A stretch of DNA of 64,000 nucleotides from Acidimicrobiia bacterium (GTDB lineage: Bacteria; Actinomycetota; Acidimicrobiia; Acidimicrobiales; JANYDT01), in the NCBI GenBank assembly GCA_031383405.1, contig JANMZO010000022.1:1544-65543 (forward strand). The letters are read 5' to 3'. Of the stretch, positions 3,393-63,705 are shown piece after piece; the first letter of the stretch is position 1; every line of letters starts with the position of its first letter. Made by a program: the position numbers and the translations under genes. A model generated the notes under the pieces. The model made no database searches. It worked only from the letters and a program-made list of their open reading frames with translations, and was not told the DNA's origin.

Positions 3393-3823
3393 GTACGCAT
3401 ATTAGTTCGGGCAGTGACGTTTCAATATTTCGAACCCTTGCCGACGGTACGTGTGTCGGACGACCGTGCCCGAAACAGTATTGCTGCGCTACCGCGACAC
3501 AATCCGTGGACATATCGTGAGACAGTGGAGGCATGTGCACTCCAGCGATCGTTCTCGGTGCGCACCGCCCCTGCATCCCGACGCTGCTGGGATCCAGGAG
3601 TCAAAAGGTCCTCGGTCACTGGTAACCAATGTCTTCGGGCACTGGTGATGTTGCGTCGCCAGGTGCATTCTCAATACGGGTGGCGCGCTTCAGCTCAACC
3701 TGTGGACCCGACCAGGTCCATCCTTCCGATGGTCCCCCGATCCTCGTGAACGATGATTTTTCGATTCTTCGTGAACTATTTCGTCCTGTTCGTCCGTAGC
3801 GGTCCCGGTGTCCCGGGCTTCCC

Positions 3824-3860: not shown

Positions 3861-4129
3861 CAGACCGTGCCGGTCCCCTGACCGGTTGGCCAACGAACGG
3901 CCGCTTCACCAATGGACGGATGCCGGACGACCCGATTTCCAACCGTCGGATCGCCGTCCGCAGGTTTGATGCTCCGTCGAATCGGGTACATCCAACGTGC
4001 CGGACCCGCCCGCCCCAAGGTCCCGGGCGAAATCAGACCGTGACCTCTACCGAGGATTTCTACGGAACCACCCGGCAGGTCGCCAAGGCGTCCTGCCCCG
4101 GCTCCGTGCCGACAACCAAAGGAGAACCA

Positions 4130-7714: not shown

Positions 7715-8839
7715 ATGAAACTCAACACCGGTGTGATCACATCGCGTCCATCGTTCCCGAACGGGACCATTCCCGCGGCGGACAGGGAAACGCTTACAGC
7801 GCTGGACGCTCCTTCCGCCCAAACGGCGTCGACTGCCGCAAAGGCAGTTCAGGCAGTTCAGGCAGTTCAGGCATCGCGCGTCCGCAAAGAACCGATCATC
7901 GCCGCCGGCAGCGTTCCCGGCTACGGGGCGGTGTTCAACGCCGGGGTGATCGAGCACAACGGTGAATATCACCTGTTTGCCCGCGGGATACGAGATGGCT
8001 ATTTTCGCAACGAGGGGGAAGGTGCCCGCTTCCTCAACTACGTGAGCGACGTGCTCGTGTTCGTTTCCGACGACGGGGTTGATTACCGATTTCAACAAGT
8101 GCTCGCGAGGAGCAGCGACGACTGGATCCACGCGGTCGAGGACCCACGCGTGCAATGGGTGCACAGTCGCGGAACCAAGCACGCGGTAATGACCTACACC
8201 CACCTTTCGCATCCATCGACCGGGAACCCGTGGCGTGTGGGCGCGCTCCGACTCGACTTCGACGGGGACCGTTTCGCTCTCGACGAAAGCTCTGCACGTG
8301 TGCTTGGGCCCGAGGGAGTGCACGACAAAGATGCCGTGGTGTTCAACTTGGGCAACGGCAAGGTGGCTCTCATCCACCGGGTTCACCCCAACATCCAGGT
8401 TGCGGTTTTCGATGACCTGGAACACCTGTGGTCGGCCGACGCCGCGTATTGGGATGCCCACATGCGTGACCTGGATCAGCACACGATCATCGCTTCGTCC
8501 GTGCACGTGAGTGGGGTCGGCGCAGGAGCGCCTCCGGTCGAGACCGACGAAGGGCTCCTGCTCTTCTACCACGAGCGGTTGATTACGGGCACCTACACGA
8601 TGAACGTGGCGCTGCTTGATCCCGATACGGCCAAGGTGCGAGCGGTGCTTCCATATCCGATTCTGGTCCCGGAACTACCGTGGGAACTCGAAGGCGACGT
8701 CAACGACGTTGTCTTTGTCGGGGGAGCGGTGGTCCGGACCGACGGCAACATCTATCTCACGTACGGCGCTGCTGACCGTTGCGTTGGGGCCGCAATCGTC
8801 GGGACCCGGGCTCTGCTCGATGCGCTCGCTGCGGTTTGA
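7715..8839 (+). CDS. second GH130-like glycosidase/phosphorylase paralog with a roughly 60-aa N-terminal extension
   Basis: 374 aa. It carries FNAGVIEHNGEYHLFARG, VEDPRVQWV and HDKDAVVF...LIHRV. The N-terminal 60 aa is low-complexity and includes AVQAVQAVQ. Confidence 0.8.
   Translation: MKLNTGVITSRPSFPNGTIPAADRETLTALDAPSAQTASTAAKAVQAVQAVQASRVRKEPIIAAGSVPGYGAVFNAGVIEHNGEYHLFARGIRDGYFRNEGEGARFLNYVSDVLVFVSDDGVDYRFQQVLARSSDDWIHAVEDPRVQWVHSRGTKHAVMTYTHLSHPSTGNPWRVGALRLDFDGDRFALDESSARVLGPEGVHDKDAVVFNLGNGKVALIHRVHPNIQVAVFDDLEHLWSADAAYWDAHMRDLDQHTIIASSVHVSGVGAGAPPVETDEGLLLFYHERLITGTYTMNVALLDPDTAKVRAVLPYPILVPELPWELEGDVNDVVFVGGAVVRTDGNIYLTYGAADRCVGAAIVGTRALLDALAAV
7844..7873 (+). repeat. 9-bp tandem repeat x3.3 (gcagttcag), in frame (AVQ x3)
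   Basis: Read directly from the sequence, inside the N-terminal extension of the second GH130 ORF. Confidence 0.9.
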
Positions 8840-8878
8840 ACAGAAACCGCCAAACCGTGTCGGTTTGTGTTCAAACCG
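8831..8878. terminator. cluster of alternative hairpins (GCGGTTT/AAACCGC, CAAACCG/CGGTTTG, CGGTTTG/CAAACCG) between convergent genes
   Basis: Five alternating AAACCG/CGGTTT arms start at the GH130 stop codon. There is no U-tract, so this is a possible bidirectional terminator. Confidence 0.4.
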
Positions 8879-11411: not shown

Positions 11412-11450
11412 ACCGCTGCGGGCACGCACCGGCCCGACACACGGCGCTGA

Positions 11451-11574
11451 GAAATGTGGACATGAACGGTTGGCCGCAGGTTTGTGTCCACGTTTCGACA
11501 TGTATGTGGTGCGAAATGTGGACATGACCGGTTGGCCGCAGGTTTGTGTCCACGTTTCGACATGTATGTGGTGC
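11451..11574 (+). repeat. 62-bp tandem duplication (2 copies, 1 mismatch) carrying GTGGACA / TGTCCAC arms
   Basis: Copy 1 is 11451-11512 and copy 2 is 11513-11574; they differ only at 11466 versus 11528 (a/c). The unit is gaaatgtggacatgaMcggttggccgcaggtttgtgtccacgtttcgacatgtatgtggtgc. Confidence 0.95.
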
Positions 11575-11641
11575 GACCACCGGAACTCGCCGACTCGGCG
11601 CAAGACGCGACGTGTGGTGCGTGAGATGCCACACTGGTGGG

Positions 11642-11914
11642 GTGATCAAGCGAATCGTCTGGTGGACCGCCGGAGCGCTGATGGGCGCAGGGGGTTCGAC
11701 CTATCTGCAAATCAAGTTCCGCAAGGCGGTCCAGGCCAAGGTGGCGAAGTATGCCCCGCCGAACATGGTCGCTGTGGCGGCCGACAGGGCCAAAGGCTTC
11801 AGGTCACGGGTGGGCTCCGCCGTTTCGGAGGGAAGATCGGCGATGGTCCAACGGGAGACTGAACTGCGCAACCGGGTCGCAACCCGCTCCGCTGCCGCGA
11901 AGCGCCCGAGATAA
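11642..11914 (+). CDS. small hypothetical membrane protein upstream of alaS
   Basis: The GTG at 11642 gives VIKRIVWWTAGALMGAGGSTYLQIKF..., one TM helix plus a basic tail. The longer ORF from 11546 would start inside the repeat element. Confidence 0.45.
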   Translation: MIKRIVWWTAGALMGAGGSTYLQIKFRKAVQAKVAKYAPPNMVAVAADRAKGFRSRVGSAVSEGRSAMVQRETELRNRVATRSAAAKRPR

Positions 11915-11959
11915 ACCCCGCTCCGAAGGACCGGGGACGGCCGGTAGGCTGGCACCACC

Positions 11960-14605: not shown

Positions 14606-14700
14606 CCGCCCATCGGCCGTGTGGGTGCACCTTTCGGCCCTCCCGGGAGAAAAGTGAACCCACACAACGGGTTCGCACGACTCACCGGTACTCTGGAGAC

Positions 14701-22285: not shown

Positions 22286-22579
22286 AGGACTTCGGCCGTG
22301 AGATACGCTTCCACGGTTTCGCGACCATAGGTTCCGGCTACCGACGACTGGGTGCCTATACCCCATCACCGGGGTGTGGATCGGTTGCGTCTTCGTGGAT
22401 CCCCGATGTGTATCAGCCGACGCTCAGATGGCCAGATGTGCGGTAAACCTACGGGATTTGACCGGGCGACAGACCCGATAGGCGATAGCCAGCGGGATAA
22501 CAAGGGTAAGCGAAGAACGCCGCTCTCGGTGGTCTTGCGTGGCAAGATGCACAGACAAGTTCATAGGGAAGGCCGCGCA

Positions 22580-25500
22580 ATGCAATCGACGGAAAACCGC
22601 CGTACACCTAAAGCGAAACGAACATCGGCCAGGCATCGTCGGCGGTCGCTGCTGCAGTTCGGGCTTGGGATCGTGACGGCGGTCGGCATAACGGCCGTTG
22701 GCTTCCCCTTTGTGGCCTCGGGCCAATCGTCGTCGGGCCCATCCTCGGGTCAGACGGTCCAAGCTTTCGCTGCGGCGCCCGCCACTTCCACCACCACGAA
22801 GGCAACCTCTGAGGTTCGAAAGCCCAGCTACGGCGACGTTGACACCGCCCGGAGCACGGCTGCGTTGACGGTGGTGCTCGCAGCCCCGTCGGGCGCCCTT
22901 CGCTCGACGAGTTCGGCAAGTGAGATACGTTGGATTTTTGATCGCCCCGTGACCCAACTCGGCGCAATTGACAAACAACTGGATCCGAAGAAGTACGTTT
23001 CGATCACACCGAACCTCGATGGCAAGTTCCGATGGGTGTCGACGCGTGCCCTCGTTTTTGAACCAACCTCGGTTCCGGGTTCATCGACGTACACTGTCAC
23101 CCTCGCGGCCGGGTTCCCGGCCATCGATGGCACGAGCCTCGCCGAGCCCAAGGTGACGAGATTCTCCACCCCGACGATTTCGTGCTCGCTGGTCGACACC
23201 CAACTTCCGCGGGTCCGGGTCCACTGCGACCAGCCATCTACGATCAAATCCGTAGGCGCGCATACGGTCATCGAATACTTGCGCCTCGAATCTGATTCCG
23301 GCGACTCGTTCGCTACTCAGTACCGTCCGGCCGCCACCGACCTGGCCACGATGAAAAAGATCGACCCGGCCGGAACTGCGGCACTCGAAAAGGTGATTGC
23401 CCGGCTCGATTCGGCCAAGGAGGTTGTGGCCACCCACGGGGTCCGCATCGTGCGTGAGGAGTTATGCGACGCAACGAAGGACCCGTCAGTCGACAACACC
23501 TGCTTCGTTTTTGAAGGTATCCGTCCTGTAGTGCTCGATACCGTGGCCCGCCTCAAGTTCTCGGCCGGGACCGTTACCTCCGAAGGTCCGCTCCTCGGAA
23601 AAGCCTCGGTCGATGGTCGTATTCCAACCGAGCGTTCCCCCCTTGTCGTCATGAACGCCTGCTCGAAGAACTGCAACCCCGAAAGCTACTTCGGACTGGA
23701 AATGGCCGGCGACGGGTTTTCACCCTTGGGTCTCGATGGAGCGATCACCGTGAAGGACATCGGAGCGAAGAAGTCGGTGACCTACCGGATCCCGGCCGAC
23801 CTGACCATCAAATCCGAAGACGACGTCGACTCGTTGCCCGGCAATCTCCGTTACCCGCTGTCGCTTTCATGGGCTGGCATCAAACCTCTGCGGACCTATG
23901 AAGTGAGTGTCTCGCCGAAGGCCCGAAACATCTCCGGCCGCGGCCTCGGCTACACCGCCGTTCGCACGTTCTCTCTCGGCAACTACCCGGCGTTCGCGTT
24001 CATTTCCGGTGGCGAGCAGGTCGTCGAGTCCGAGGTCAACGGCTTGCGGCTCCGCTCGCGCAACACCACCGAAGTTGATGAGATTGTTTCCCGCGTGGAC
24101 AGGGGAGACCTTGTTGCGCAAATACGGGCCTACGCCGGAACCTCGACCGATCCCCTCGACCTCAACAAGGTCGGTTCGTCGAAGGTTACGCTGACCCCGA
24201 AGACGAACTACTCAGCGAGTTCGGTCGTGCCGTTCCCTGACAAGAAGCCGGGCGTGTTTCTGGTAGCGGTGAGGGCAAGAAAGTACGTCGGGAAGAGTCG
24301 TTACAACGACCAGGGTTACCAGTGGAACGGGTCCGATCAGAACGCGGCGGATGAAGCGGCCAAGTCGGCTAAGGGCACGGGAGCATACGGGGATGGTTGG
24401 TCGAGCGCGCTTGTGCAGCGAACGGATCTCGCCGTGACGCTGAAGCGCTCGGAGAGCAACGTTGTCGTGGTGGTCACAAGCCTGGCCGACGCGAAGCCGG
24501 TGAAGGGCGCCGAGGTGTCGCTCTACGATTCCGACGACCATCCGTACTGGACCGGAAAGACCGGTGAGGAAGGCATCGTCGAAGGCAAGGTATCCAAGAA
24601 CAAAGCTTGTGCGTCCGGCTGTGATGTGGTCGCGGTCGTCCAACACGATGGTGATATCGCGTATGCCCTCAGCTACTGGCGTGACTGGGGCGATGACGTT
24701 CGCTACAGCGACGTGAGCGACTCGTCGGCGCCCGACTCCTCCGGCGGTTCCGAAGCCGACCTCGTCGACACCCAAGCGCCTACCACCGTGGCCGAAGACG
24801 CGGCCCCCACGCTTGCGCCGGGTGTCCACCGGATCGGGGCCGTGTTTGCCGACCGGGGCGTCTACAAGGTCGGTGAGGTAGTCAACATCAAGGGGTACCT
24901 GCGAAATGAAACATTACGTGAACTTACCTTTCCCGACGGTGTGAAGAAGGCGACTGTCACGGTCACCGACCCACGCAATACCGTGATCGCGTCCAACAAG
25001 GTCGACGTTTCTTCCAGTGGCGCTTTCGACACCACGGTCACTGTCCCGACCGCTGCCGTACAAGGCGACTACAGCATCGCGGTTGACAACACGTTCACCT
25101 CCTTCCTCGTTACGACGTTCCGCAAACCCGACTTCGTCGTAGACGTCAAAGCCACGCCGGGTTCGGTCGTGCGCGGCAAGTCGATCAGCTTCGATGTCAC
25201 GGGTCGCTATCTCTACGGGTCCCCAATGACGGGTGATCCGCTGAATGCGAGCTACTCCGCCAACTACCTCACCATCAACCCTCTGGCCGACATTCGCGGC
25301 CCGCAGTACCAGGGCTTCACATGGACATTCACGTGTGAGTACGCGCAGACGGCCGACACGCCCGACCCTGATGCCACCTCCGGCGATGAGTGTTACGACT
25401 CCGCAGGAGGCGATCTGAGCGGCCAGAACTCCGCGACGCTAGACACTGCCGGACACTACGTCGAGACCATCCAGGCGCCGGTGCGCAGCAAGCGTCACTA

Positions 25501-28500
25501 CCCGGTCGGGCTCGGCTACGAGGCCAACGTCAGCGATGTAAGTCGCCAGTCATTCGCGGGTCGAACATCGGCGATCGTTCACCCGGGTGAGTACTACGTG
25601 GGCGTCCGTCAGAAGGAGTACTTCACCACCTCCAAGAAGCCGATGGTGATCGACCTCATCGCGGGATCGCCCGACGGCAAAGTTGTAACCGGAGCAAACG
25701 TGACCGTCGATCTTTTCCGGTGGGACTACGTCACGACGAAGCGCAAGAACGACGACGACACCGTGACGACGGTCGGTACCTGGAAATCGACACAAGCCGG
25801 CACCGCGAAGGCAAAGACCGCGGGCCAGCCGGTGTCGGTTTCGTTCACCCCGGATAAGGCGGGCACCTATGAGGTCAGGGCCCATGCCAAGGACGCTTCC
25901 GGCAACTATCTCGAATCGGGCTTTTCGACCTATGTGCTCGGACCGGACTTCGTGCCGTGGTACACCGACGACTCCCAGCCGCAACTCACGATGATCGCCG
26001 ACAAGGCGTCGTACAAGCCGGGTGACAAGGCCCGCATCCTCATCCAGTCACCGTTCTCAAAAGCCACCGGCCTGCTTACCATCGAGCGCAATGGTGTTAT
26101 GGAGCACCGCCGTTTCGACGTCAACAGTTCGGCCACGTCGGTCGAGATTCCAATCACGGATGAATACACGCCCAATGTCTATGCCAGTGTGACCTTGTTC
26201 AAGGGCCGCACGGGTGCCCCGAGCAAGACCGACCCGTCGGACCCGAACCGCCCGCAGGTGCAGACCGGAACACTCAACCTTTCCGTTCCACCGAAGACAA
26301 AGGAACTTTCGGTGAGCGTCGAAACTGATAAGCGCGAGTATCTTCCTGCTGCCGATGCGTCGGCGACGGTGAAGGTTGTCGATGCCAAGGGTCAGCCGGC
26401 GAAGGGAGAGGTGACGCTGTGGGCGGTCGACGAGGGCGTCCTTCGCCTCACCAACTACACGGCACCCGATCTGCTCACCATGATGTACCCGGGTCGCTCG
26501 CTGAGCGTCGACACCGCCGACAGCCGAATGCGGCTGGTCGCGCGTAACCGCGACGATGAGAAGGGTGGCGTCGACGGTGCTGCCCCCGCACCGGGTGGCG
26601 GTGGAGGCGACGAAGAAGCCACGGTGGCGGAGGGTATACGCACCGACTTCCGCACCCTCGCCGCCTGGTCGGCCACCGTGAAGGTCGGCGACAACGGCAT
26701 AGCTGTGGTGCCGATGAAGTTGCCGGAATCCCTCACGGAGTACCGCGTGATCGCGGTTGCTATCAGCGGTGCCGACCGTTTCGGCACCGGTAAGAGCAGC
26801 CTCACGATCCGCAAGCCGTTCCTCGCCCTGGCGGCACTGCCCCGCTCGGTCAACATCGGAGACACCTTCGAAGCCGGCGCGACGCTCCGCAATCAAACCG
26901 GCACGGCTGCGCCTGCGACATTGACGATTGATCTTCCGGCCGACTCGCCGCTCGTGGTCGATGGCCCGAAGACACTGACCGCTTCCGCTCTCGGCGACGT
27001 TCCGACCGAGCTCCGGTTCAAGTTCCGTGCGCTGAAGACCGGCACCGCGACGTTCAATCTGAAGGCCAAGCTGGCCGACGGAGTCGGTGCCGAGCGTAAC
27101 GACGCGCTCCGTGCCTCGATACCGGTCACCGTTACGCGTCGGCTGGAAACCGTTGCGACCTCGGGCACGGTGTCGGCCGGTGGAAAGCCTGATCTGGAGC
27201 CGATCACCGTTCCCGCGGGGGTTTACGGTGACCTCGGATCGCTCGAAATCACCGCCTCGTCAAGTGCCCTTGCCGGTCTGCAAAACGGCATCACGCAGCT
27301 CGCCGAGTACCCCTACGGTTGTGTGGAACAGCGGTCGTCCCGCATCCGGGTGTTGCTTGACCTGGCTGCGCTGGCCGAGAAGTATCCGCTACCGGGCGTC
27401 AAGACCGGCAACATCAAGACGGTCGTCCAGGAGCAGATCAATCTCCTGCGCACGTATCAAACCGACACCGGCGGCCTCGCGTACTGGCCGGGTGATACGT
27501 ATGCCGACCAGTTCATCTCGCCCCGCGTGTTCCTTCTTCTCCTGGATGCCAAAGACGCCGGCTACAAGATCCCCGCGGGCATGATGGAGCAGTTGCAGTC
27601 CTATCTGATTGAAATGGCCAGGGGTGAGCGCAGCGACAGCTTCGTCGATTCGTCCCTCCCGAACCAGGCTCAGGTGGCCTGGGCGCTGGCCCGGGCGGGG
27701 CACCCCGAATCCGGCCTCGTCGACTTCCTCTACGAAAAGCGCTTCGAGCTCTCGTTCCTGGAGCGGGTTCATCTCCTTCATGCCATGTTGGAAGCCGGGG
27801 AGAAGGGCAAGCGCCCGAACTCGCTGTTTGGCGATCTCACCTCAAGCGTGCGAACCGATGGCGGGCGGGCCATGGTCGAGGAAGACTTCGATTGGGCCAA
27901 TTGGCCCAGCTTGAGTTACCTCGACGGCGGTCGTTCCCATGACACGGCGGCGTTCCTGTCGTTGCTCGTTCGTATCGACGCCAGCCACCCGTTGGTGACT
28001 CAGTTGGCGGCCGGGCTTCTGTCGCAACGCCGCAACGGGACGTGGGACAACACGTTGGAGAGTGGCTATGCGTTGAAGGCACTTCTCGACGTGTCGCGCT
28101 ACGCGGAGAAGACGACGCCCGACTTCACGGCGAAGATCGCCATCGGAACATCCAAGTTGATGGATCAGAGGTTCGCCGGGTCGGATCTCTCGGTCGTCGG
28201 CTCTTCGACGCCGATGGCAAAGCTAAGCACACTTAGTAAGCCTGGCACCGCCAGCCAACTGAGTATCTCGGCCGAGGGGAAGGGCACGTTGCACTGGGCG
28301 GCTTCGCTGCGATACGCGCCGAACCTGGCGTCGTTGAAGCCGCTTGATCAAGGTCTCACGGTCGAGCGTCGGTACTTCCCGTTCACCAAGACCGAGTACG
28401 ACAAATCCGGAAACCTGATCCTCCCTCCGGCGAGCACGTCGTTCAAGGCGGGTGACCTGGTCCGCGTCGTCATCAAGGTGTCCACGCCACTCGCCCGCAC

Positions 28501-28948
28501 GAACCTCGCGGTCGACGACCCGCTGCCCGCCGGACTCGAAGCCCTCAACGCGTCTCTCGCGTCCACGTCGCAGGCTGATGTCGGCGAGGGCGATACCGCC
28601 GGGGACGACGGCAACGGAGCTTCGGCCTACGACCGGGTCGAGATCGGCAACGACCGGGTGCTGTTCTTTGCGAACCAGTTTTCAGCGGGCGAGCACGTGA
28701 CGTCGTACATCGCCCGTGCCACCGCGCCAGGCACGTTCGTCGTCGCTCCGACCCAGGCCGAAGACATGTACCGCCCCGACGTGTTCGGCCGCAACGGAAC
28801 CGCCACCATCGTGATTGCGCCCCCGGTCGGAAAGGCTGCGGCGCCCGTGTCGACCGTGGCGCCCGTATCGACCGTATCGCCCGTGTCGACCGCCAAAGTG
28901 GCCTCGACACCGGCGTCGGCCGGGGTCACCACGACGACGAAAAAGTAA
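22580..28948 (+). CDS. bacterial alpha-2-macroglobulin family protein (thioester-containing)
   Basis: The ATG at 22580 follows agggaagg. 2122 aa. The N-terminus has a basic RRRSLL stretch then a hydrophobic segment. The thioester motif EYPYGCVEQ sits at 27320-27331 (CVEQ), flanked by many MG-like beta-rich repeats. The next gene is a PBP1C, which is the known pairing. Confidence 0.85.
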   Translation: MQSTENRRTPKAKRTSARHRRRSLLQFGLGIVTAVGITAVGFPFVASGQSSSGPSSGQTVQAFAAAPATSTTTKATSEVRKPSYGDVDTARSTAALTVVLAAPSGALRSTSSASEIRWIFDRPVTQLGAIDKQLDPKKYVSITPNLDGKFRWVSTRALVFEPTSVPGSSTYTVTLAAGFPAIDGTSLAEPKVTRFSTPTISCSLVDTQLPRVRVHCDQPSTIKSVGAHTVIEYLRLESDSGDSFATQYRPAATDLATMKKIDPAGTAALEKVIARLDSAKEVVATHGVRIVREELCDATKDPSVDNTCFVFEGIRPVVLDTVARLKFSAGTVTSEGPLLGKASVDGRIPTERSPLVVMNACSKNCNPESYFGLEMAGDGFSPLGLDGAITVKDIGAKKSVTYRIPADLTIKSEDDVDSLPGNLRYPLSLSWAGIKPLRTYEVSVSPKARNISGRGLGYTAVRTFSLGNYPAFAFISGGEQVVESEVNGLRLRSRNTTEVDEIVSRVDRGDLVAQIRAYAGTSTDPLDLNKVGSSKVTLTPKTNYSASSVVPFPDKKPGVFLVAVRARKYVGKSRYNDQGYQWNGSDQNAADEAAKSAKGTGAYGDGWSSALVQRTDLAVTLKRSESNVVVVVTSLADAKPVKGAEVSLYDSDDHPYWTGKTGEEGIVEGKVSKNKACASGCDVVAVVQHDGDIAYALSYWRDWGDDVRYSDVSDSSAPDSSGGSEADLVDTQAPTTVAEDAAPTLAPGVHRIGAVFADRGVYKVGEVVNIKGYLRNETLRELTFPDGVKKATVTVTDPRNTVIASNKVDVSSSGAFDTTVTVPTAAVQGDYSIAVDNTFTSFLVTTFRKPDFVVDVKATPGSVVRGKSISFDVTGRYLYGSPMTGDPLNASYSANYLTINPLADIRGPQYQGFTWTFTCEYAQTADTPDPDATSGDECYDSAGGDLSGQNSATLDTAGHYVETIQAPVRSKRHYPVGLGYEANVSDVSRQSFAGRTSAIVHPGEYYVGVRQKEYFTTSKKPMVIDLIAGSPDGKVVTGANVTVDLFRWDYVTTKRKNDDDTVTTVGTWKSTQAGTAKAKTAGQPVSVSFTPDKAGTYEVRAHAKDASGNYLESGFSTYVLGPDFVPWYTDDSQPQLTMIADKASYKPGDKARILIQSPFSKATGLLTIERNGVMEHRRFDVNSSATSVEIPITDEYTPNVYASVTLFKGRTGAPSKTDPSDPNRPQVQTGTLNLSVPPKTKELSVSVETDKREYLPAADASATVKVVDAKGQPAKGEVTLWAVDEGVLRLTNYTAPDLLTMMYPGRSLSVDTADSRMRLVARNRDDEKGGVDGAAPAPGGGGGDEEATVAEGIRTDFRTLAAWSATVKVGDNGIAVVPMKLPESLTEYRVIAVAISGADRFGTGKSSLTIRKPFLALAALPRSVNIGDTFEAGATLRNQTGTAAPATLTIDLPADSPLVVDGPKTLTASALGDVPTELRFKFRALKTGTATFNLKAKLADGVGAERNDALRASIPVTVTRRLETVATSGTVSAGGKPDLEPITVPAGVYGDLGSLEITASSSALAGLQNGITQLAEYPYGCVEQRSSRIRVLLDLAALAEKYPLPGVKTGNIKTVVQEQINLLRTYQTDTGGLAYWPGDTYADQFISPRVFLLLLDAKDAGYKIPAGMMEQLQSYLIEMARGERSDSFVDSSLPNQAQVAWALARAGHPESGLVDFLYEKRFELSFLERVHLLHAMLEAGEKGKRPNSLFGDLTSSVRTDGGRAMVEEDFDWANWPSLSYLDGGRSHDTAAFLSLLVRIDASHPLVTQLAAGLLSQRRNGTWDNTLESGYALKALLDVSRYAEKTTPDFTAKIAIGTSKLMDQRFAGSDLSVVGSSTPMAKLSTLSKPGTASQLSISAEGKGTLHWAASLRYAPNLASLKPLDQGLTVERRYFPFTKTEYDKSGNLILPPASTSFKAGDLVRVVIKVSTPLARTNLAVDDPLPAGLEALNASLASTSQADVGEGDTAGDDGNGASAYDRVEIGNDRVLFFANQFSAGEHVTSYIARATAPGTFVVAPTQAEDMYRPDVFGRNGTATIVIAPPVGKAAAPVSTVAPVSTVSPVSTAKVASTPASAGVTTTTKK
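28841..28894 (+). repeat. 18-bp tandem repeat x3, in frame (APVSTV x3) at the A2M C-terminus
   Basis: Read directly from the sequence: gcgcccgtgtcgaccgtg / gcgcccgtatcgaccgta / tcgcccgtgtcgaccgcc. Confidence 0.9.
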
Positions 28949-28954
28949 GCGTGC

Positions 28955-31090
28955 ATGCGACGACGGACAAAGGTTCTGGCCGGTTCGTTCGTCGTCGGCG
29001 CGCTTGGGCTCTGGGCCCGACTCGGTAGCCTGCCTGTAGCGATAACCGAGCCGAGAACCATACGTGCACCGACGTTTCTGGCGAGCGATGGCTCCCCGCT
29101 CGACGCGGCCGCGACCCGGGCCCTCGCTGCGGAAAAACGACAATCATCCAAAACCCGGGGCCCGTCACTGGCGAAGCAGGCCAAGCGGTTGGCCGAGGCG
29201 ACGAAGGCGGCCGAAGACCGCCGTTTTACGTCCCACGTCGGGGTCGACCCCATCGCCGTGGTACGGGCCATCGGGGCCGACGTTCGGGCTCGACGGGTCG
29301 TGCAGGGTGGTTCTACGATCACCCAGCAATTGGTGAAGCTGCGAGCCGGATCCGGGTCCGATGGACGTAGCGCCCGGGGGAAGCTGCGGCAGGCGATCTT
29401 CGCGCTCCGGCTCGAACACCGCATGAGCAAAGACGACATCCTTTCCGCATACCTGGCTGAAGCTCCGTACGGAGGCCGGATGATCGGGGCCGAATCGGCC
29501 GCGGAGGGGTACTTCGGGACCTCGGCATCACAACTCACGTGGGCCCAGGCGGCATATTTGGCCTCGCTGCCGCAACGCCCCACGGCCTTCAACCCGCGGC
29601 GTGATCAAACGGCAGCGCGTCACCGGCAGGTCTGGATCCTGAGGCGGTTGCGCAAGACAGGGGTACTCGACGAACGAGAACTGCAGGCCGCCCTCTCCGA
29701 GGCATTGAACTTGGTTCCCGACGCCTTTGATCCGCAAGCTCCGCACTTCACCGAAATGCTGGCCAAACAGCAATTGACGACCGGCGTTCCGATCCGTACG
29801 ACACTCGACGCGGCTCTGCAGCGCGACGTTGTCGGGATTGCGCGGCAGCAGCGACGCGTACTGCGCAAGAACCATGCCGCCAACGTTGCGGTGGTGGTAC
29901 TCGACAACCGCACCGGCGCGGTGCGGGCCTGGGAGGGTAGCGGCGACTATTTCGATGCTGATCACGGTGGCATGCTCAACGGCCCGACTCTTACGCGGCA
30001 GGTCGGGTCGACCATCAAGCCATTTATCTACGCCGGTGCGTTTGACGCGGGATCGGCTCCGGGTGATCTGATTGACGACACGCCGTTTGAGACCATGGCC
30101 GACGGTAAGAACTTCCAACCCCAGAACTACGATCACAAGTTTCGGGGCCCGATTCCGATGCGAAGGGCCTTGGCCAGTTCGGTCAATATCCCTGCGGTGC
30201 GCCTGCTGGCCGACCAGACACCACGCGTGCTTATGGATACGTTGTCGAGGTCCGGGATCGAGCTTCCATTCGGGCCTCAACACTACGGACTGGCCCTGGC
30301 TCTCGGAACAGCTGAGATAAGCCTGCTCGATCTGACGAAGGCGTACGCTTCGTTCGCCCGCGGCGGCCTTTCACTGAACCCGACCTTCATAGAACCCGCG
30401 AAGATGCAGGCCGGTGGACGCCAGGTTGTGAGCGAGTCGGCCGCGTTTCTCGTCAGCGATGTGCTTTCGGACAACGAGGCCCGAGCCTCAGCGTTCGGTA
30501 GACGCTCGGCACTGAAGTTCACCTTTCCCGTTGCGGCCAAGACCGGAACTTCGCAGAACTTCCACGATAACTGGGTTGTGGGTTACACGGCTGATTTCAC
30601 CGTCGGCGTGTGGGTGGGCAACTTCGACCGGACCCCACTGGCCGGAGCCACGGGCGTCACCGGCGCCGGGCCGGTCTTCCACGCGGTGATGCTCGCCGCC
30701 CACCGCTATCTCGCGCCAAGCGCGGGCCTGTCACCCGACGCGACACTGCTTCGTTCGGTACCCGACGATCTCGTTGCCGTCGAGCACGGCACCCGCACCG
30801 AGTACGACTGGTTGGTTCCACGGCGCCGGGTCGTTTCGGCGCCGGACCTCGGTGGGAAATTGCGTCTGGTCGAGCCGGTCGGCGGCGGTCAGTACCTTCT
30901 CGACGCCAGCCGCCCGGGGGATGCCCAGAGCCTTCCTCTGCGCGCCAGCGGCGGCAGCGCTCCCTACCTGTTCACGGTCGACGGCGATCCCTTTACCGGG
31001 TCGTCGTGGTCACTGCGGGTTGGTCGTCACGAGATCTGCGTACGTGACCGCACAGGCACCAAACGGTGCTCCCACTTCTCCGTGTCGTGA
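28955..31090 (+). CDS. pbpC: penicillin-binding protein 1C (bifunctional glycosyltransferase/transpeptidase)
   Basis: 711 aa with an N-terminal TM anchor. GT51 motifs are EDRRFTSHVGVD and GGSTITQQL. Transpeptidase motifs are STIKPF, SVN and KTGTS. There is also a PBP1C-type C-terminal domain. Confidence 0.9.
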   Translation: MRRRTKVLAGSFVVGALGLWARLGSLPVAITEPRTIRAPTFLASDGSPLDAAATRALAAEKRQSSKTRGPSLAKQAKRLAEATKAAEDRRFTSHVGVDPIAVVRAIGADVRARRVVQGGSTITQQLVKLRAGSGSDGRSARGKLRQAIFALRLEHRMSKDDILSAYLAEAPYGGRMIGAESAAEGYFGTSASQLTWAQAAYLASLPQRPTAFNPRRDQTAARHRQVWILRRLRKTGVLDERELQAALSEALNLVPDAFDPQAPHFTEMLAKQQLTTGVPIRTTLDAALQRDVVGIARQQRRVLRKNHAANVAVVVLDNRTGAVRAWEGSGDYFDADHGGMLNGPTLTRQVGSTIKPFIYAGAFDAGSAPGDLIDDTPFETMADGKNFQPQNYDHKFRGPIPMRRALASSVNIPAVRLLADQTPRVLMDTLSRSGIELPFGPQHYGLALALGTAEISLLDLTKAYASFARGGLSLNPTFIEPAKMQAGGRQVVSESAAFLVSDVLSDNEARASAFGRRSALKFTFPVAAKTGTSQNFHDNWVVGYTADFTVGVWVGNFDRTPLAGATGVTGAGPVFHAVMLAAHRYLAPSAGLSPDATLLRSVPDDLVAVEHGTRTEYDWLVPRRRVVSAPDLGGKLRLVEPVGGGQYLLDASRPGDAQSLPLRASGGSAPYLFTVDGDPFTGSSWSLRVGRHEICVRDRTGTKRCSHFSVS

Positions 31091-31179
31091 ACGGTACGGG
31101 TGCACGTTTACCCGTGAAAGGGGGAAAAGTGCACCCATACCTGCGTAGAGCCCCGGCTTGCGTCGGCCACAATGGTGGG

Positions 31180-54342: not shown

Positions 54343-54386
54343 GCCGCCCCGTTGATCGTTTCCGCGCCAAACGATCAACGGGCGGC
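54343..54386. terminator. long perfect-ish hairpin between convergent priA and the S41 peptidase (bidirectional terminator candidate)
   Basis: GCCGCCCCGTTGATCGTTT (54343-61), loop ccgcgcc, AAACGATCAACGGGCGGC (54369-86). It has 18 bp with one bulged C. The right arm covers the S41 stop codon. There is no U-tract. Confidence 0.55.
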
Positions 54387-62738: not shown

Positions 62739-62786
62739 GACGCTAGCCCCCGTCCGCCGAGAGCCGGCGCCGGTTCCGCTGAATCC

Positions 62787-62838
62787 GGTTTATGTCCACG
62801 GTTTGACATGTATACGACGCGAACTGTGGACATAAACG
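62787..62838 (+). repeat. third, diverged copy of the TGTCCAC/GTGGACA hairpin element (18-bp continuous helix, 14-nt loop)
   Basis: ggTTTATGTCCACgGTTTG-acatgtatacgacg-CGAACtGTGGACATAAAcg. It aligns base-for-base with 11479-11530. It lies in the divergent dinG/uppS intergenic region. Confidence 0.85.
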
Positions 62839-62946
62839 CCGAGAGCCGGCCCGGGCGACACCAGAATTGTGGAGGATTTGTGGAGGTTTCCGAAGCGGGG
62901 TGCCCGCGGCACGGCAAAACGCGTCGGGGCCGCTAACGTCAGAGGA

Positions 62947-63705
62947 ATGCGGTCGCCATTCCCTTCGACGCTTCCTCCCGGTATCGATTCGTCATATCTA
63001 CCTCGACACATCGCCTGCGTGATGGATGGGAACGGGCGCTGGGCCACTCGCCGTGGTCTACCCCGAACCGACGGTCACGCTGCGGGAGAGGAAGCACTGT
63101 TCGATGCGGTGGAGGGAGCGCTTGAACTTCGGGCTGAGTGGTTCACCGTCTATGCGTTCTCGACGGAGAACTGGAAGCGCCCGATCGACGAAGTGCGTTT
63201 CCTCATGCACTTCAACGAGTCGATTCTCGTTCGGCGTCGCGACGAACTCAACGATCTGGGCGTCCGGGTTCGTTTCATCGGTCGTCGTAACTGGCGCGTG
63301 CCGGGTCGGTTGATCAAGCAGATCGAAGCGGCGGAGGACCTCACGCGCAAGAACCGTCGGATGACGCTGTCGTTCGCGTTCAACTATGGCGGACGAGCTG
63401 AATTGGTCGATGCCGTGCAGCGGATCATCGGAGACCGGGTCCCGGCCAACAAGATCGACGACAGGTTGATTTCGAAGTACCTCTACGCACCCGATATGCC
63501 TGACCCCGACCTCATGATCCGGACCTCGGGGGAATACCGCACGTCGAACTTCCTCCTGTGGCAGTTGGCCTATTCCGAGCTTGTGTTCACCGAGGTGTTG
63601 TGGCCCGACTTCCGTCGCAAAGACCTGTTCGACGCCGTGAAGGAGTTTCAGGCCCGGGAGCGCCGCTTTGGTGGCGTAGAAGCAGCGAACACCGCAGGTT
63701 CGTGA
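62947..63705 (+). CDS. uppS: isoprenyl (undecaprenyl) diphosphate synthase
   Basis: The ATG at 62947 gives ...LPRHIACVMDGNGRWA. It also has FSTENWKRP and IRTSGEYRTSNFLLWQLAYSE. Confidence 0.93.
   Translation: MRSPFPSTLPPGIDSSYLPRHIACVMDGNGRWATRRGLPRTDGHAAGEEALFDAVEGALELRAEWFTVYAFSTENWKRPIDEVRFLMHFNESILVRRRDELNDLGVRVRFIGRRNWRVPGRLIKQIEAAEDLTRKNRRMTLSFAFNYGGRAELVDAVQRIIGDRVPANKIDDRLISKYLYAPDMPDPDLMIRTSGEYRTSNFLLWQLAYSELVFTEVLWPDFRRKDLFDAVKEFQARERRFGGVEAANTAGS

Follow-up and report, generated by a model that had tools for sequence, protein, structure and literature searches.

Lineage-restricted palindromic repeats, probably a new REP/MIRU-like family, in uncultured soil Acidimicrobiales

REP-like repeats are well studied in Proteobacteria and hardly in Actinomycetota, where no such work is known for uncultured soil Acidimicrobiales. 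Broadly defined, a REP is extragenic, palindromic and short (14–40 nt in E. coli), shares a consensus with its other copies, is multicopy and is usually transcribed (PMC12306157). The strict REP/RAYT definition asks for a 5' GT(A/G)G head, a GC-rich palindrome interrupted by 2–4 bases, more than 100 copies, alternating BIMEs and a RAYT gene flanked by the repeats (PMC2817692). MIRUs are tandem units of 46–101 bp scattered over many intergenic loci, with a copy number that varies between strains (PMC3914561).

Here we describe a hairpin-forming repeat from a 64-kb stretch of DNA (the window, which is the whole stretch analysed), a housekeeping portion, at 63% G+C, of an Acidimicrobiales chromosome whose DinG and RarA homologues are found in Acidimicrobiales MAGs. 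We think it probable, at roughly 60%, that the element represents a new family of lineage-restricted, REP/MIRU-like interspersed palindromic repeats of uncultured soil Acidimicrobiales. The hairpin is real and maintained; it is not a conserved cis-regulator of the genes that adjoin it. A defined family with a covariance model offers a handle for finding the copying enzyme and can be used in strain typing through presence or absence and array length, and the repeats may explain assembly breaks in short-read MAGs.

Repeat units in the window and beyond

The element occupies two loci in the window, a tandem array at 11.4 kb and a solo unit in the spacer between the divergent genes dinG and uppS (Table 1). 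The original prediction had this solo hairpin match the central hairpin of the array (unit Y) column for column, and alignment A2, in which column n is position 11477+n in unit Y and 62785+n in the solo unit, confirms it. The pair table likewise agrees with each of the predicted stem differences: T11493-A11516 corresponds to G62801-C62824, a double compensatory change; G11484.T11525 to A62792-T62833; T11483.G11526 to T62791-A62834; C11496-G11513 to T62804.G62821; and the mismatch T11481/C11528 to the pair T62789-A62836. As had also been stated, the 5' half of the loop (ACATGTAT) is the same in both copies whereas the 3' half reads GTGGTG in one and ACGACG in the other. The hairpin itself stands as described, but its stem is longer, with 18 bp around a 14-nt loop in both copies in place of about 13 bp. 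Over the 50-nt core the two units are 80% identical, and the claim that this similarity exceeds chance holds: the pattern GGTTTRTGTCCACG-N-TGTGGACAT matches only 11479-11525 and 62787-62833 and has 0 matches in 100 shuffles, and the 21-nt 5' half TGTCCACGKTTYGACATGTAT occurs three times in the window (11485, 11547 and 62793) against an expectation of 0. Covariance model R1 scores unit Y at 71.3 bits (E 4e-18) and the solo unit at 72.8 bits (E 1e-18); their RNA folds reach -27.4 kcal/mol (z -5.4) and -26.6 kcal/mol (z -6.4), respectively, with -20.1 kcal/mol for the bottom strand of the solo unit.

Table 1. Repeat units and other hairpins in the window, the Pfam-based order of window genes, and the gene contexts of the seven loci.
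Feature	Position	Strand	Remarks
First array unit, 5'-truncated	11447-11469	+	Loop end and 3' arm (CTGAGAAATGTGGACATGAACGG)
Linker TTGGCCGCAG	11470-11479	+	Between units; GTTGGCCG also present at the empty site of L044
Complete unit Y	11480-11529	+	5' arm 11480-11497, loop 11498-11511, 3' arm 11512-11529
Second linker (CGGTTGGCCGCAG region)	11530-11541	+	From array sequence and TRF
Last array unit Z, 3'-truncated	11542-11576	+	5' arm and loop, without 3' arm
Left copy of 13-bp direct repeat	62756-62768	+	19 nt before hairpin; membership in element uncertain
Solo unit	62788-62837	+	5' arm 62788-62805, loop 62806-62819, 3' arm 62820-62837
Tail GCCGAGAGCCGGC	62838-62850	+	Directly after hairpin; right copy of 13-bp direct repeat
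Sister hairpin	14617-14667		Directly after alaS stop
Sister hairpin	31092-31142		Directly after PBP1C stop
Hairpins of similar build	862-912, 8832-8878, 54348-54382
Window genes, block 1			aspS, HD-domain (YfbR-like) gene, group-1 glycosyltransferase, two GH130, NUDIX, rarA, DUF948
Window genes, block 2			alaS, Cys/Met PLP enzyme, ruvX, yceG, aroE, aroC
Window genes, block 3			alpha-2-macroglobulin with PBP, aroB, aroQ, M24 peptidase, nusB
Window genes, block 4		-	Short-chain dehydrogenase, cyclase, enoyl-CoA hydratase
Window genes, block 5			pyrR, pyrB, carA, carB, pyrF, gmk, rpoZ, coaBC, metK
Window genes, block 6			S41 peptidase, UvrD/HRDC helicase, hydrolase, dinG, then (divergent) uppS
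Context of array locus	11.4 kb		DUF948, then small ORF-alaS; co-directional
Context of solo locus	62.8 kb		dinG / uppS; divergent
Context of L007			Thiolase with own terminator, then LigD Prim-Pol; co-directional, element reversed
Context of L001a			Fae, then 127-aa gene; co-directional
Context of L001b			asnB-like / pentapeptide gene; convergent
Context of L019b			454-aa gene / FAD-oxidoreductase; convergent
Context of L018			SfLAP / yceD-rpmF-plsX; divergent

TRF finds 2.0 copies of a 62-nt unit at 11451-11576, matching at 98%. Unit Y is flanked by two truncated units. The 3'-arm pattern matches the first at 11449-11467 with 2 mismatches, inside the TRF array, and this unit is missing from the collinear relative L044; unit Z fits the 5' half pattern without a mismatch at 11542-11567, and R1 gives 25.7 bits at 11540-11588. 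A degenerate 3' arm of unit Z at 11612-11637 was rejected and assigned to the flank, because L044, which has no array, carries this sequence too. A remnant copy at 3505-3513 (ATGTCCACG) was rejected as well, the rest of the element being absent there. At the solo unit, the tail exactly repeats the left 13-bp copy, which differs at 2 positions in the relative L022, and occupies the position where other copies have the tail gaCAAGGGTCGa or gCAGGCTCTCtc.

When one genome per species was scanned with the 5' half (a strict 17-base pattern), the element turned up in a single lineage, the Acidimicrobiales MAG MFD02832.bin.1.185, with a solo unit in L001, two tandem units with a 63-nt period in L007 and 2.9 units in L018; the remaining 15 of the 18 genome matches are chance hits in unrelated phyla. 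These are the only 3 loci that the strict pattern finds in this representative MAG. Fuzzy matching together with R1 added two loci, a second copy in L001 and one in L019, on a 1.4-Mb contig of a relative whose DinG is 87% identical to that of the window. Ten units were thus recovered, three at the two window loci and 7 more complete units at 5 loci, and unbiased sampling (the window, L019 and L043) gives a density of about 3 loci per 107 kb. Two scans of JGI metagenomes returned 0 matches and then 12 chance matches (low G+C, without a 3' arm), and searches of phages and plasmids (blastn) and of viral contigs gave no match to the element, so that an origin from a phage or plasmid was rejected.

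The ten units are 66–100% identical (mean pairwise identity 81%). Each spans about 62 nt (62–63), of which 50 nt form the hairpin and 11–13 nt a tail (gaCAAGGGTCGa, gCAGGCTCTCtc or GCCGAGAGCCGGC) that is found even at solo copies. The hairpin consensus is GTTTRTGTCCACGTTTYG, then the 14-nt loop with the conserved 5' half given above, then CRAARTGTGGACATAAAC; unit starts read (C/G)GTTTRTG, and the hairpin has 44–54% G+C in a 63% G+C genome. Four loci carry solo units and three carry arrays (2.0, 2 and 2.9 units), all of them head-to-tail. Mean pairwise identity falls from 88% in the 5' arm to 81% in the 5' half of the loop, 79% in the 3' arm and 62% in the 3' half of the loop, a grading that suggests sequence-specific recognition besides structure.

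Gene contexts and turnover among relatives

All seven loci lie between called genes. Both window copies have the same orientation about 110 nt upstream of a plus-strand gene (109 nt from the end of the solo unit to the likely uppS ATG at 62947), in line with the predicted 70–110 nt, but this arrangement does not extend to the other copies, which occupy spacers between convergent, divergent or co-directional genes and have no orientation in common. Orientation is informative at three loci, where two copies are sense and one is antisense, an arrangement that a 5' UTR element would not show. A common regulon was rejected, the Pfam contexts of the copies being unrelated. On two of the points that the original prediction had itself named as telling against it, among them a scatter of copies without orientation bias, the element behaves as the REP/MITE-type repeat that was its stated alternative.

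Presence and absence among relatives indicate that both window loci are dispensable. The relative L044, with a RarA 97.7% identical to that of the window and the same order rarA-DUF948-small ORF-alaS, lacks the 115 nt of the array between flanks that are about 93% identical and has only TTGGCCGACGAT at the site; the difference is unpolarised and may be a gain or a loss. Contigs of L046 and L047, from the same species as the window, end before the array. The between-strain variation seen is array versus no array. L043 (RarA 94%) has no copy in 21 kb, searched with filters off. The dinG-uppS copy is identical in L022 (DinG 99%); in L019 (87%) the spacer holds an orphan 5' arm and a hairpin with the same outer stem and a different inner stem and loop; and L020, L021 and L023 (82–83%) and L024 (70%) have no copy. 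In L021 and L023 the folds of this spacer are no more stable than those of shuffled sequence (z +0.16 to -1.0), and the idea that every relative retains some hairpin there was rejected.

Apart from promoter blocks, the orthologous dinG-uppS spacers are unalignable. Directly in front of the ATG of dinG, L019 to L022 all have a GCTAGC block, which reads GTTAGT in L023. On the uppS side, two blocks are conserved in L019–L022 and not in L023 or L024: GAATTGcGtGG-N5-6-TGTGGAGGTTT (62864-62889) and CCGCTAACGTC, which is followed 7 nt later by the uppS ATG and probably represents the -10 element of a leaderless transcript. The solo unit sits between the two core promoter regions and interrupts neither, and it is not obviously within a 5' UTR because the conserved uppS core promoter lies between the element and the ATG. 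A promoter within the loop (TTGACA) was considered and rejected, as any -10-like hexamer is at least 21 nt away, unit Y reads TTCGACA and the consensus scan is empty.

Unit Y is 86% identical to the first and third units of L018, in another genome, and 80% identical to its neighbour in the window. This cross-genome likeness, together with gains, losses and decay, is the pattern expected from the birth and death of units in a repeat that propagates from a conserved source sequence; it does not fit individually constrained sites. The window also holds sister hairpins, and the orthologous spacers of L043 carry different hairpin repeats, including a 60-nt array of 3.3 copies and, after alaS, a hairpin followed by the tail of the focal family (AACGCAAGGGTCAG); such other repeats at orthologous spacers imply several related, mutually replacing hairpin-repeat families in these genomes. 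Hairpins with unrelated inner stems have the outer ends GTTYRTGT...AYAYRAAC and the tail (A)ACGCAAGGGTC in common, swap at the same intergenic sites across genomes and show 60–63-nt tandem amplification. There is a small chance that mobile hairpin modules form a larger system in Acidimicrobiia, as yet undescribed, of which the focal family is one lineage. If so, a dedicated single-strand-specific enzyme would be the propagator, and a REPIN/RAYT-like symbiosis would exist outside Proteobacteria; a less likely variant has the TGTCCAC-type units also act as DnaA-titrating sites.

Maintenance of the hairpin and its possible causes

Across the ten copies 94.4% of 180 stem cells pair, compared with 27–58% in slid registers. 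Two column pairs changed on both sides, 19/36 (UA in five copies, CG in four, UG in one) and 16/39 (UG in six, UA in two, GC in one), and 13 further stem cells carry one-sided changes that keep the pair. Eight of the 10 unpaired stem cells belong to the three-unit L018 array (u1–u3), in which u1 and u2 have GTCCA in place of GTGGA in the 3' arm. The top strand folds as RNA at -26.6 to -28.8 kcal/mol in intact copies and the bottom strand at -18.0 to -23.9 kcal/mol, the top strand being more stable in every copy by about 4–10 kcal/mol as RNA and 2–4 kcal/mol as DNA. The z-scores of the folds lie between -2.1 and -7.8 and are weakest (-2.1 to -3.8) in the three decaying units of L018. Inside the loop of most copies are a bulged A and a 3-bp mini-stem; 9 of 10 copies retain the mini-stem C22-G34/A23-U33 with its bulged A.

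The original prediction had read covariation as the mark of a selected structure. The maintained hairpin and the two compensated pairs support this, but the covariation statistics are modest: the score of 0.183, against 0.159±0.019 in column shuffles, was reached by 28 of 500 shuffles, and related sequences reach such values without structure. Stem cells comprise 22 G.U and 4 A.C, an excess that represents few independent events because most of it derives from two ancestral pairs shared by descent. Pair-preserving events number about 8–10 against about 7 disruptive ones, and outside L018 about 10 against 2. Hairpin potential is thus maintained in intact copies and decaying in others. When two copies of a palindromic repeat differ by compensatory changes, caution is due: such changes show a maintained hairpin and not regulation of the adjoining genes.

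How the family might spread can be proposed from these comparisons. Units would be copied into intergenic DNA of any type and amplified locally head-to-tail into arrays of 2–3; at single sites they are gained, remodelled and lost fast, and the family consensus and the one-strand hairpin persist across genomes. The hairpin may be kept since the copying process, or an enzyme that recognises the repeat, needs a folded single strand, a requirement for which REP/RAYT or IS200/IS605-type elements are the model. Alternatively, quasi-palindrome template switching may hold the arms matched, and switching from arm to arm could keep palindromes matched without selection on function. A generic role of the hairpin at RNA ends could maintain it as well. 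Primary sequence is strongly conserved, in the 5' half of the loop too, and recognition by a sequence-specific host protein would agree with this as well. Effects on dinG or uppS would be incidental. The 64-kb window offers no candidate for a mobilising enzyme: no transposase, RAYT, integrase or phage gene is among its called genes, all of them housekeeping genes; nor is a RAYT gene among the genes adjoining the MAG copies. The flanks show no consistent target-site duplication, the lone candidate being the 13-bp repeat at the dinG-uppS copy. Both the mechanism of spread and a role of the repeat at the RNA level are put forward as proposals.

Such an RNA-level role would be that of a structured module at transcript ends, useful to the host, which once transcribed would act as a block to 3' exonucleases, a terminator without a U-tract or a processing site for RNase III or RNase E. 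Roles of this kind have been reported for E. coli REPs and for ERIC/Correia elements, and the idea is compatible with a repeat family and does not exclude it. It would account for the preponderance of G.U over A.C cells (22 to 4), the 4–10 kcal/mol advantage of the top strand as RNA, the mini-stem in 9 of 10 copies and the position of four of the seven loci (the window array, L001a, L001b and L019b) in sense just past a stop codon; the stops of alaS and PBP1C are likewise followed directly by sister hairpins (14617 and 31092, respectively). Yet three of the seven (the window dinG-uppS copy, L018 and L007) have no co-oriented upstream gene, near relatives do without copies, and the G.U excess comes mostly from the two ancestral pairs. 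The U-tract and terminator consensus are also absent: at neither window locus does the element's strand carry a GC-rich short-loop stem with a T-run, so an intrinsic terminator was rejected. We regard a transcript-end role as unlikely. The gene-specific regulatory RNA of the original prediction, a conserved 5' UTR riboregulator or independent sRNA about 70–110 nt upstream of specific plus-strand genes, is very improbable. The stable, statistically unusual fold and the co-orientation of both window copies with a downstream gene at about 110 nt speak for it, but it is largely refuted because the element is missing at orthologous loci, with RarA 97.7% and DinG 70–83% identical. Moreover, among the other copies some are flanked by convergent genes or precede a gene in reverse orientation, and the -10-like TAACGT of uppS (ATG 7 nt on) and GAATTG...TGTGGAGGTTT lie downstream of the element and are kept in relatives without it. 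Identification as a known RNA family, which the original prediction had allowed for, did not follow, as the window has 0 matches at the gathering thresholds of Rfam 15, and permissive scans are empty too, the best sub-threshold hits being chance matches to miRNA and snoRNA models (E at least 0.3).

A double-stranded binding site is another reading that the sequence permits, in which inverted DnaA-box-like 9-mers would titrate DnaA or a dimeric factor would control repair genes (dinG, LigD Prim-Pol). Each unit holds RTGTCCACG on the top strand and ATGTCCACA on the bottom, with cores identical at 8 of 9 and 7 of 9 positions to the actinobacterial DnaA-box consensus TTGTCCACA, a sequence that serves M. 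tuberculosis and Streptomyces as high-affinity box (PMC4285127). Across the copies TCCAC and its partner vary little or not at all, and the 3' arms of L018 u1 and u2 (TGTCCACA or CGTCCAAA) keep or flip the box where the hairpin is broken; DNA-repair genes adjoin two loci, and the 62–63-nt array period is close to six helical turns. However, neither box matches the consensus exactly, covariation and conservation reach beyond the 9-mers (columns 16/39 and 19/36, the 5' half of the loop), and TGTCCAC is not enriched in the window, with 14 occurrences against 9.1 expected and 6 of the 14 within elements. Replication and repair are absent from most contexts, close relatives dispense with the sites, and core half-sites about 27 nt apart would be unusual for a dimeric operator. 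Such binding appears improbable as the explanation of the element, for which we favour a repeat family.

Comparison with known kinds of element

No sigma-70 consensus was found at the window elements, and a CRISPR array was rejected, as the whole 62-nt period repeats (98% in the window). To our knowledge, the consensus sequences of attC, parS, dif, the SOS box and other operators do not fit the element. DnaA-box clusters (datA, DARS and the B. subtilis DBCs) resemble it in having inverted near-consensus 9-mers that are tandem-multiplied, intergenic and outside oriC, but here no box is perfect, the conserved and covarying columns reach past the 9-mers, and the loci are neither indispensable nor conserved between relatives. 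MITE-like elements (Correia/NEMIS, ERIC, RUP and BOX) are similarly small and non-coding, with terminal inverted repeats, long hairpins when transcribed and intergenic insertion, sometimes beside promoters. The Acidimicrobiales element differs from them in being shorter (50–62 nt) and in lacking a consistent target-site duplication, and no IS with matching ends was found as a parent. A MITE was rejected: the ends are inverted, but the seven loci have no duplication in common in their flanks, the sole candidate being the 13-bp repeat of one locus (62756/62838), which is offset by 19 nt.

The closest likenesses are to MIRUs and to REPs. The unit length is not a multiple of three, an 18-bp hairpin dominates the unit and there is no sign of overlapping small ORFs, which differs from MIRUs, for which such ORFs were reportedly described by Supply et al. 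in 1997. By description, however, the repeat resembles MIRUs in being actinobacterial and intergenic, in its period of 62–63 nt, within 46–101 bp, in its scattered loci of one to a few head-to-tail units and in its polymorphism among close relatives, which here takes the form of presence or absence only. The strict REP/RAYT definition does not apply, as the element has no GT(A/G)G head, a stem that is not GC-rich, a 14-nt loop and no alternating BIME. The stem is A+T-rich for a 63% G+C genome, the loop is 14 nt long compared with 2–4 nt in REP/BIME, arrays are head-to-tail, the copies probably number far fewer than 100, a RAYT was not seen, and the host is an actinobacterial lineage rather than a proteobacterium. 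Like REP, BIME and REPIN sequences, the units are short extragenic imperfect palindromes with a family consensus and multiple copies, placed near gene ends and between convergent genes, with one strand that folds better and with compensatory changes in the stem; individual copies turn over fast as the family persists. At 50 nt for the hairpin and 62–63 nt for the unit they are longer than E. coli REPs, by a length criterion that is species-dependent, and the 64-kb window has 2 loci with highly similar units, the MAG lineage at least 5. Under the broad definition (PMC12306157) the element would qualify as a REP, being extragenic, palindromic, relatively short and multicopy with a shared consensus.

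Repeats and conserved blocks in the dinG-uppS spacer

The dinG-uppS spacer is a hot spot of repeat expansion. At this site in a relative with 87% DinG identity (L019, 9897-9976), we found an orphan 5' arm of the focal REP/MIRU-like family, GGTTTATGTCCA, adjoined by a hairpin whose outer stem is that of the focal family but whose inner stem reads AGCC/GGCT rather than CCAC/GTGG. This hairpin is related to one that lies 3' of alaS in L043, a relative with 94% RarA identity.

Two blocks of the spacer are conserved among relatives whose DinG is as little as 82% identical, L023 excepted. The downstream block, CCGCTAACGTC, contains TAACGT and looks like the -10 element of a leaderless uppS mRNA; a TAGCGT also precedes dinG on the opposite strand. 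Outside the conserved blocks the spacer is unalignable among relatives. An unrelated tandem repeat with six units of ~38 nt occupies it in L020 (9700-9990), and several short tandem repeats, likewise unrelated, are present in L024 (9740-9960).

Possible origin and variation of the tandem arrays

The rarA-alaS interval that carries the tandem array is plastic, as comparison of window positions 11412-11959 with loci L038-L041 and L043 indicates: an ftsH-like gene, in some cases with further genes, occupies it in relatives at 80-82%, the L043 interval holds a GT87 gene together with three small ones, and the window and the collinear array-free relative L044 have only a small ORF. The sequence GTTGGCCG is common to both array linkers (11470-11476 and 11532-11538) and to the empty site of L044 (11785-11792); either the target may have supplied the linker sequence, or excision may have left a scar at the L044 site. 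Short-read contigs from two near-identical strains (L046 and L047, RarA 99.8%) both end within the DUF948 gene, ~170 nt ahead of the array, which may reflect an assembly break near the tandem repeat.

In the 2.9-unit array of the MAG locus L018, two units (3805-3823 and 3867-3885) carry GTCCA in place of GTGGA within the 3' arm. This GG-to-CC change breaks the centre of the stem and recreates TGTCCAC in direct orientation. The core may truly have inverted, or the change may be an artefact of the long-read consensus.

Sister hairpins and a common tail

Two sister hairpins in the window are matched weakly by R1, the covariance model of the focal family (E 1e-3 for the copy after alaS and 2e-2 for that after the PBP gene); the alaS copy is retained in L044 with one arm substitution.

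Hairpins and conserved blocks in the window
Feature	Position	Sequence	Location
Sister hairpin	14617-14667	GGGTGCACnTTT...AAAAGTGCACCC	directly 3' of alaS stop codon
Sister hairpin	31092-31142	GGGTGCACnTTT...AAAAGTGCACCC	directly 3' of PBP stop codon
Long hairpin, comparatively A+T-rich	862-912		gene end
Long hairpin, comparatively A+T-rich	8832-8878		gene end
Long hairpin, comparatively A+T-rich	54348-54382		gene end
Conserved block	62864-62889	GAATTGtGGAGG-N-TGTGGAGGTTT	dinG-uppS spacer
Conserved block	62930-62949	CCGCTAACGTC	uppS ATG 7 nt on
Opposite-strand motif	62740-62747	TAGCGT	10 nt ahead of dinG ATG

Orthologous spacers of L043 (100-296 and 8505-8705) hold different hairpin repeats, including a tandem array of 3.3 units of 60 nt. 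Hairpins in L043 (16945-17000) and L038 (16420-16489) have stems unrelated to the focal family. The tail behind them, (A)ACGCAAGGGTC(R), is that of this family, which hints at a modular superfamily.

The alpha-2-macroglobulin and PBP genes

A gene for a 2198-aa bacterial alpha-2-macroglobulin is followed at once by one for a bifunctional penicillin-binding protein (PBP) with a BiPBP_C domain (22352-31090). This neighbor is probably PBP1C, and bacterial alpha-2-macroglobulin and PBP1C genes are a known pairing.
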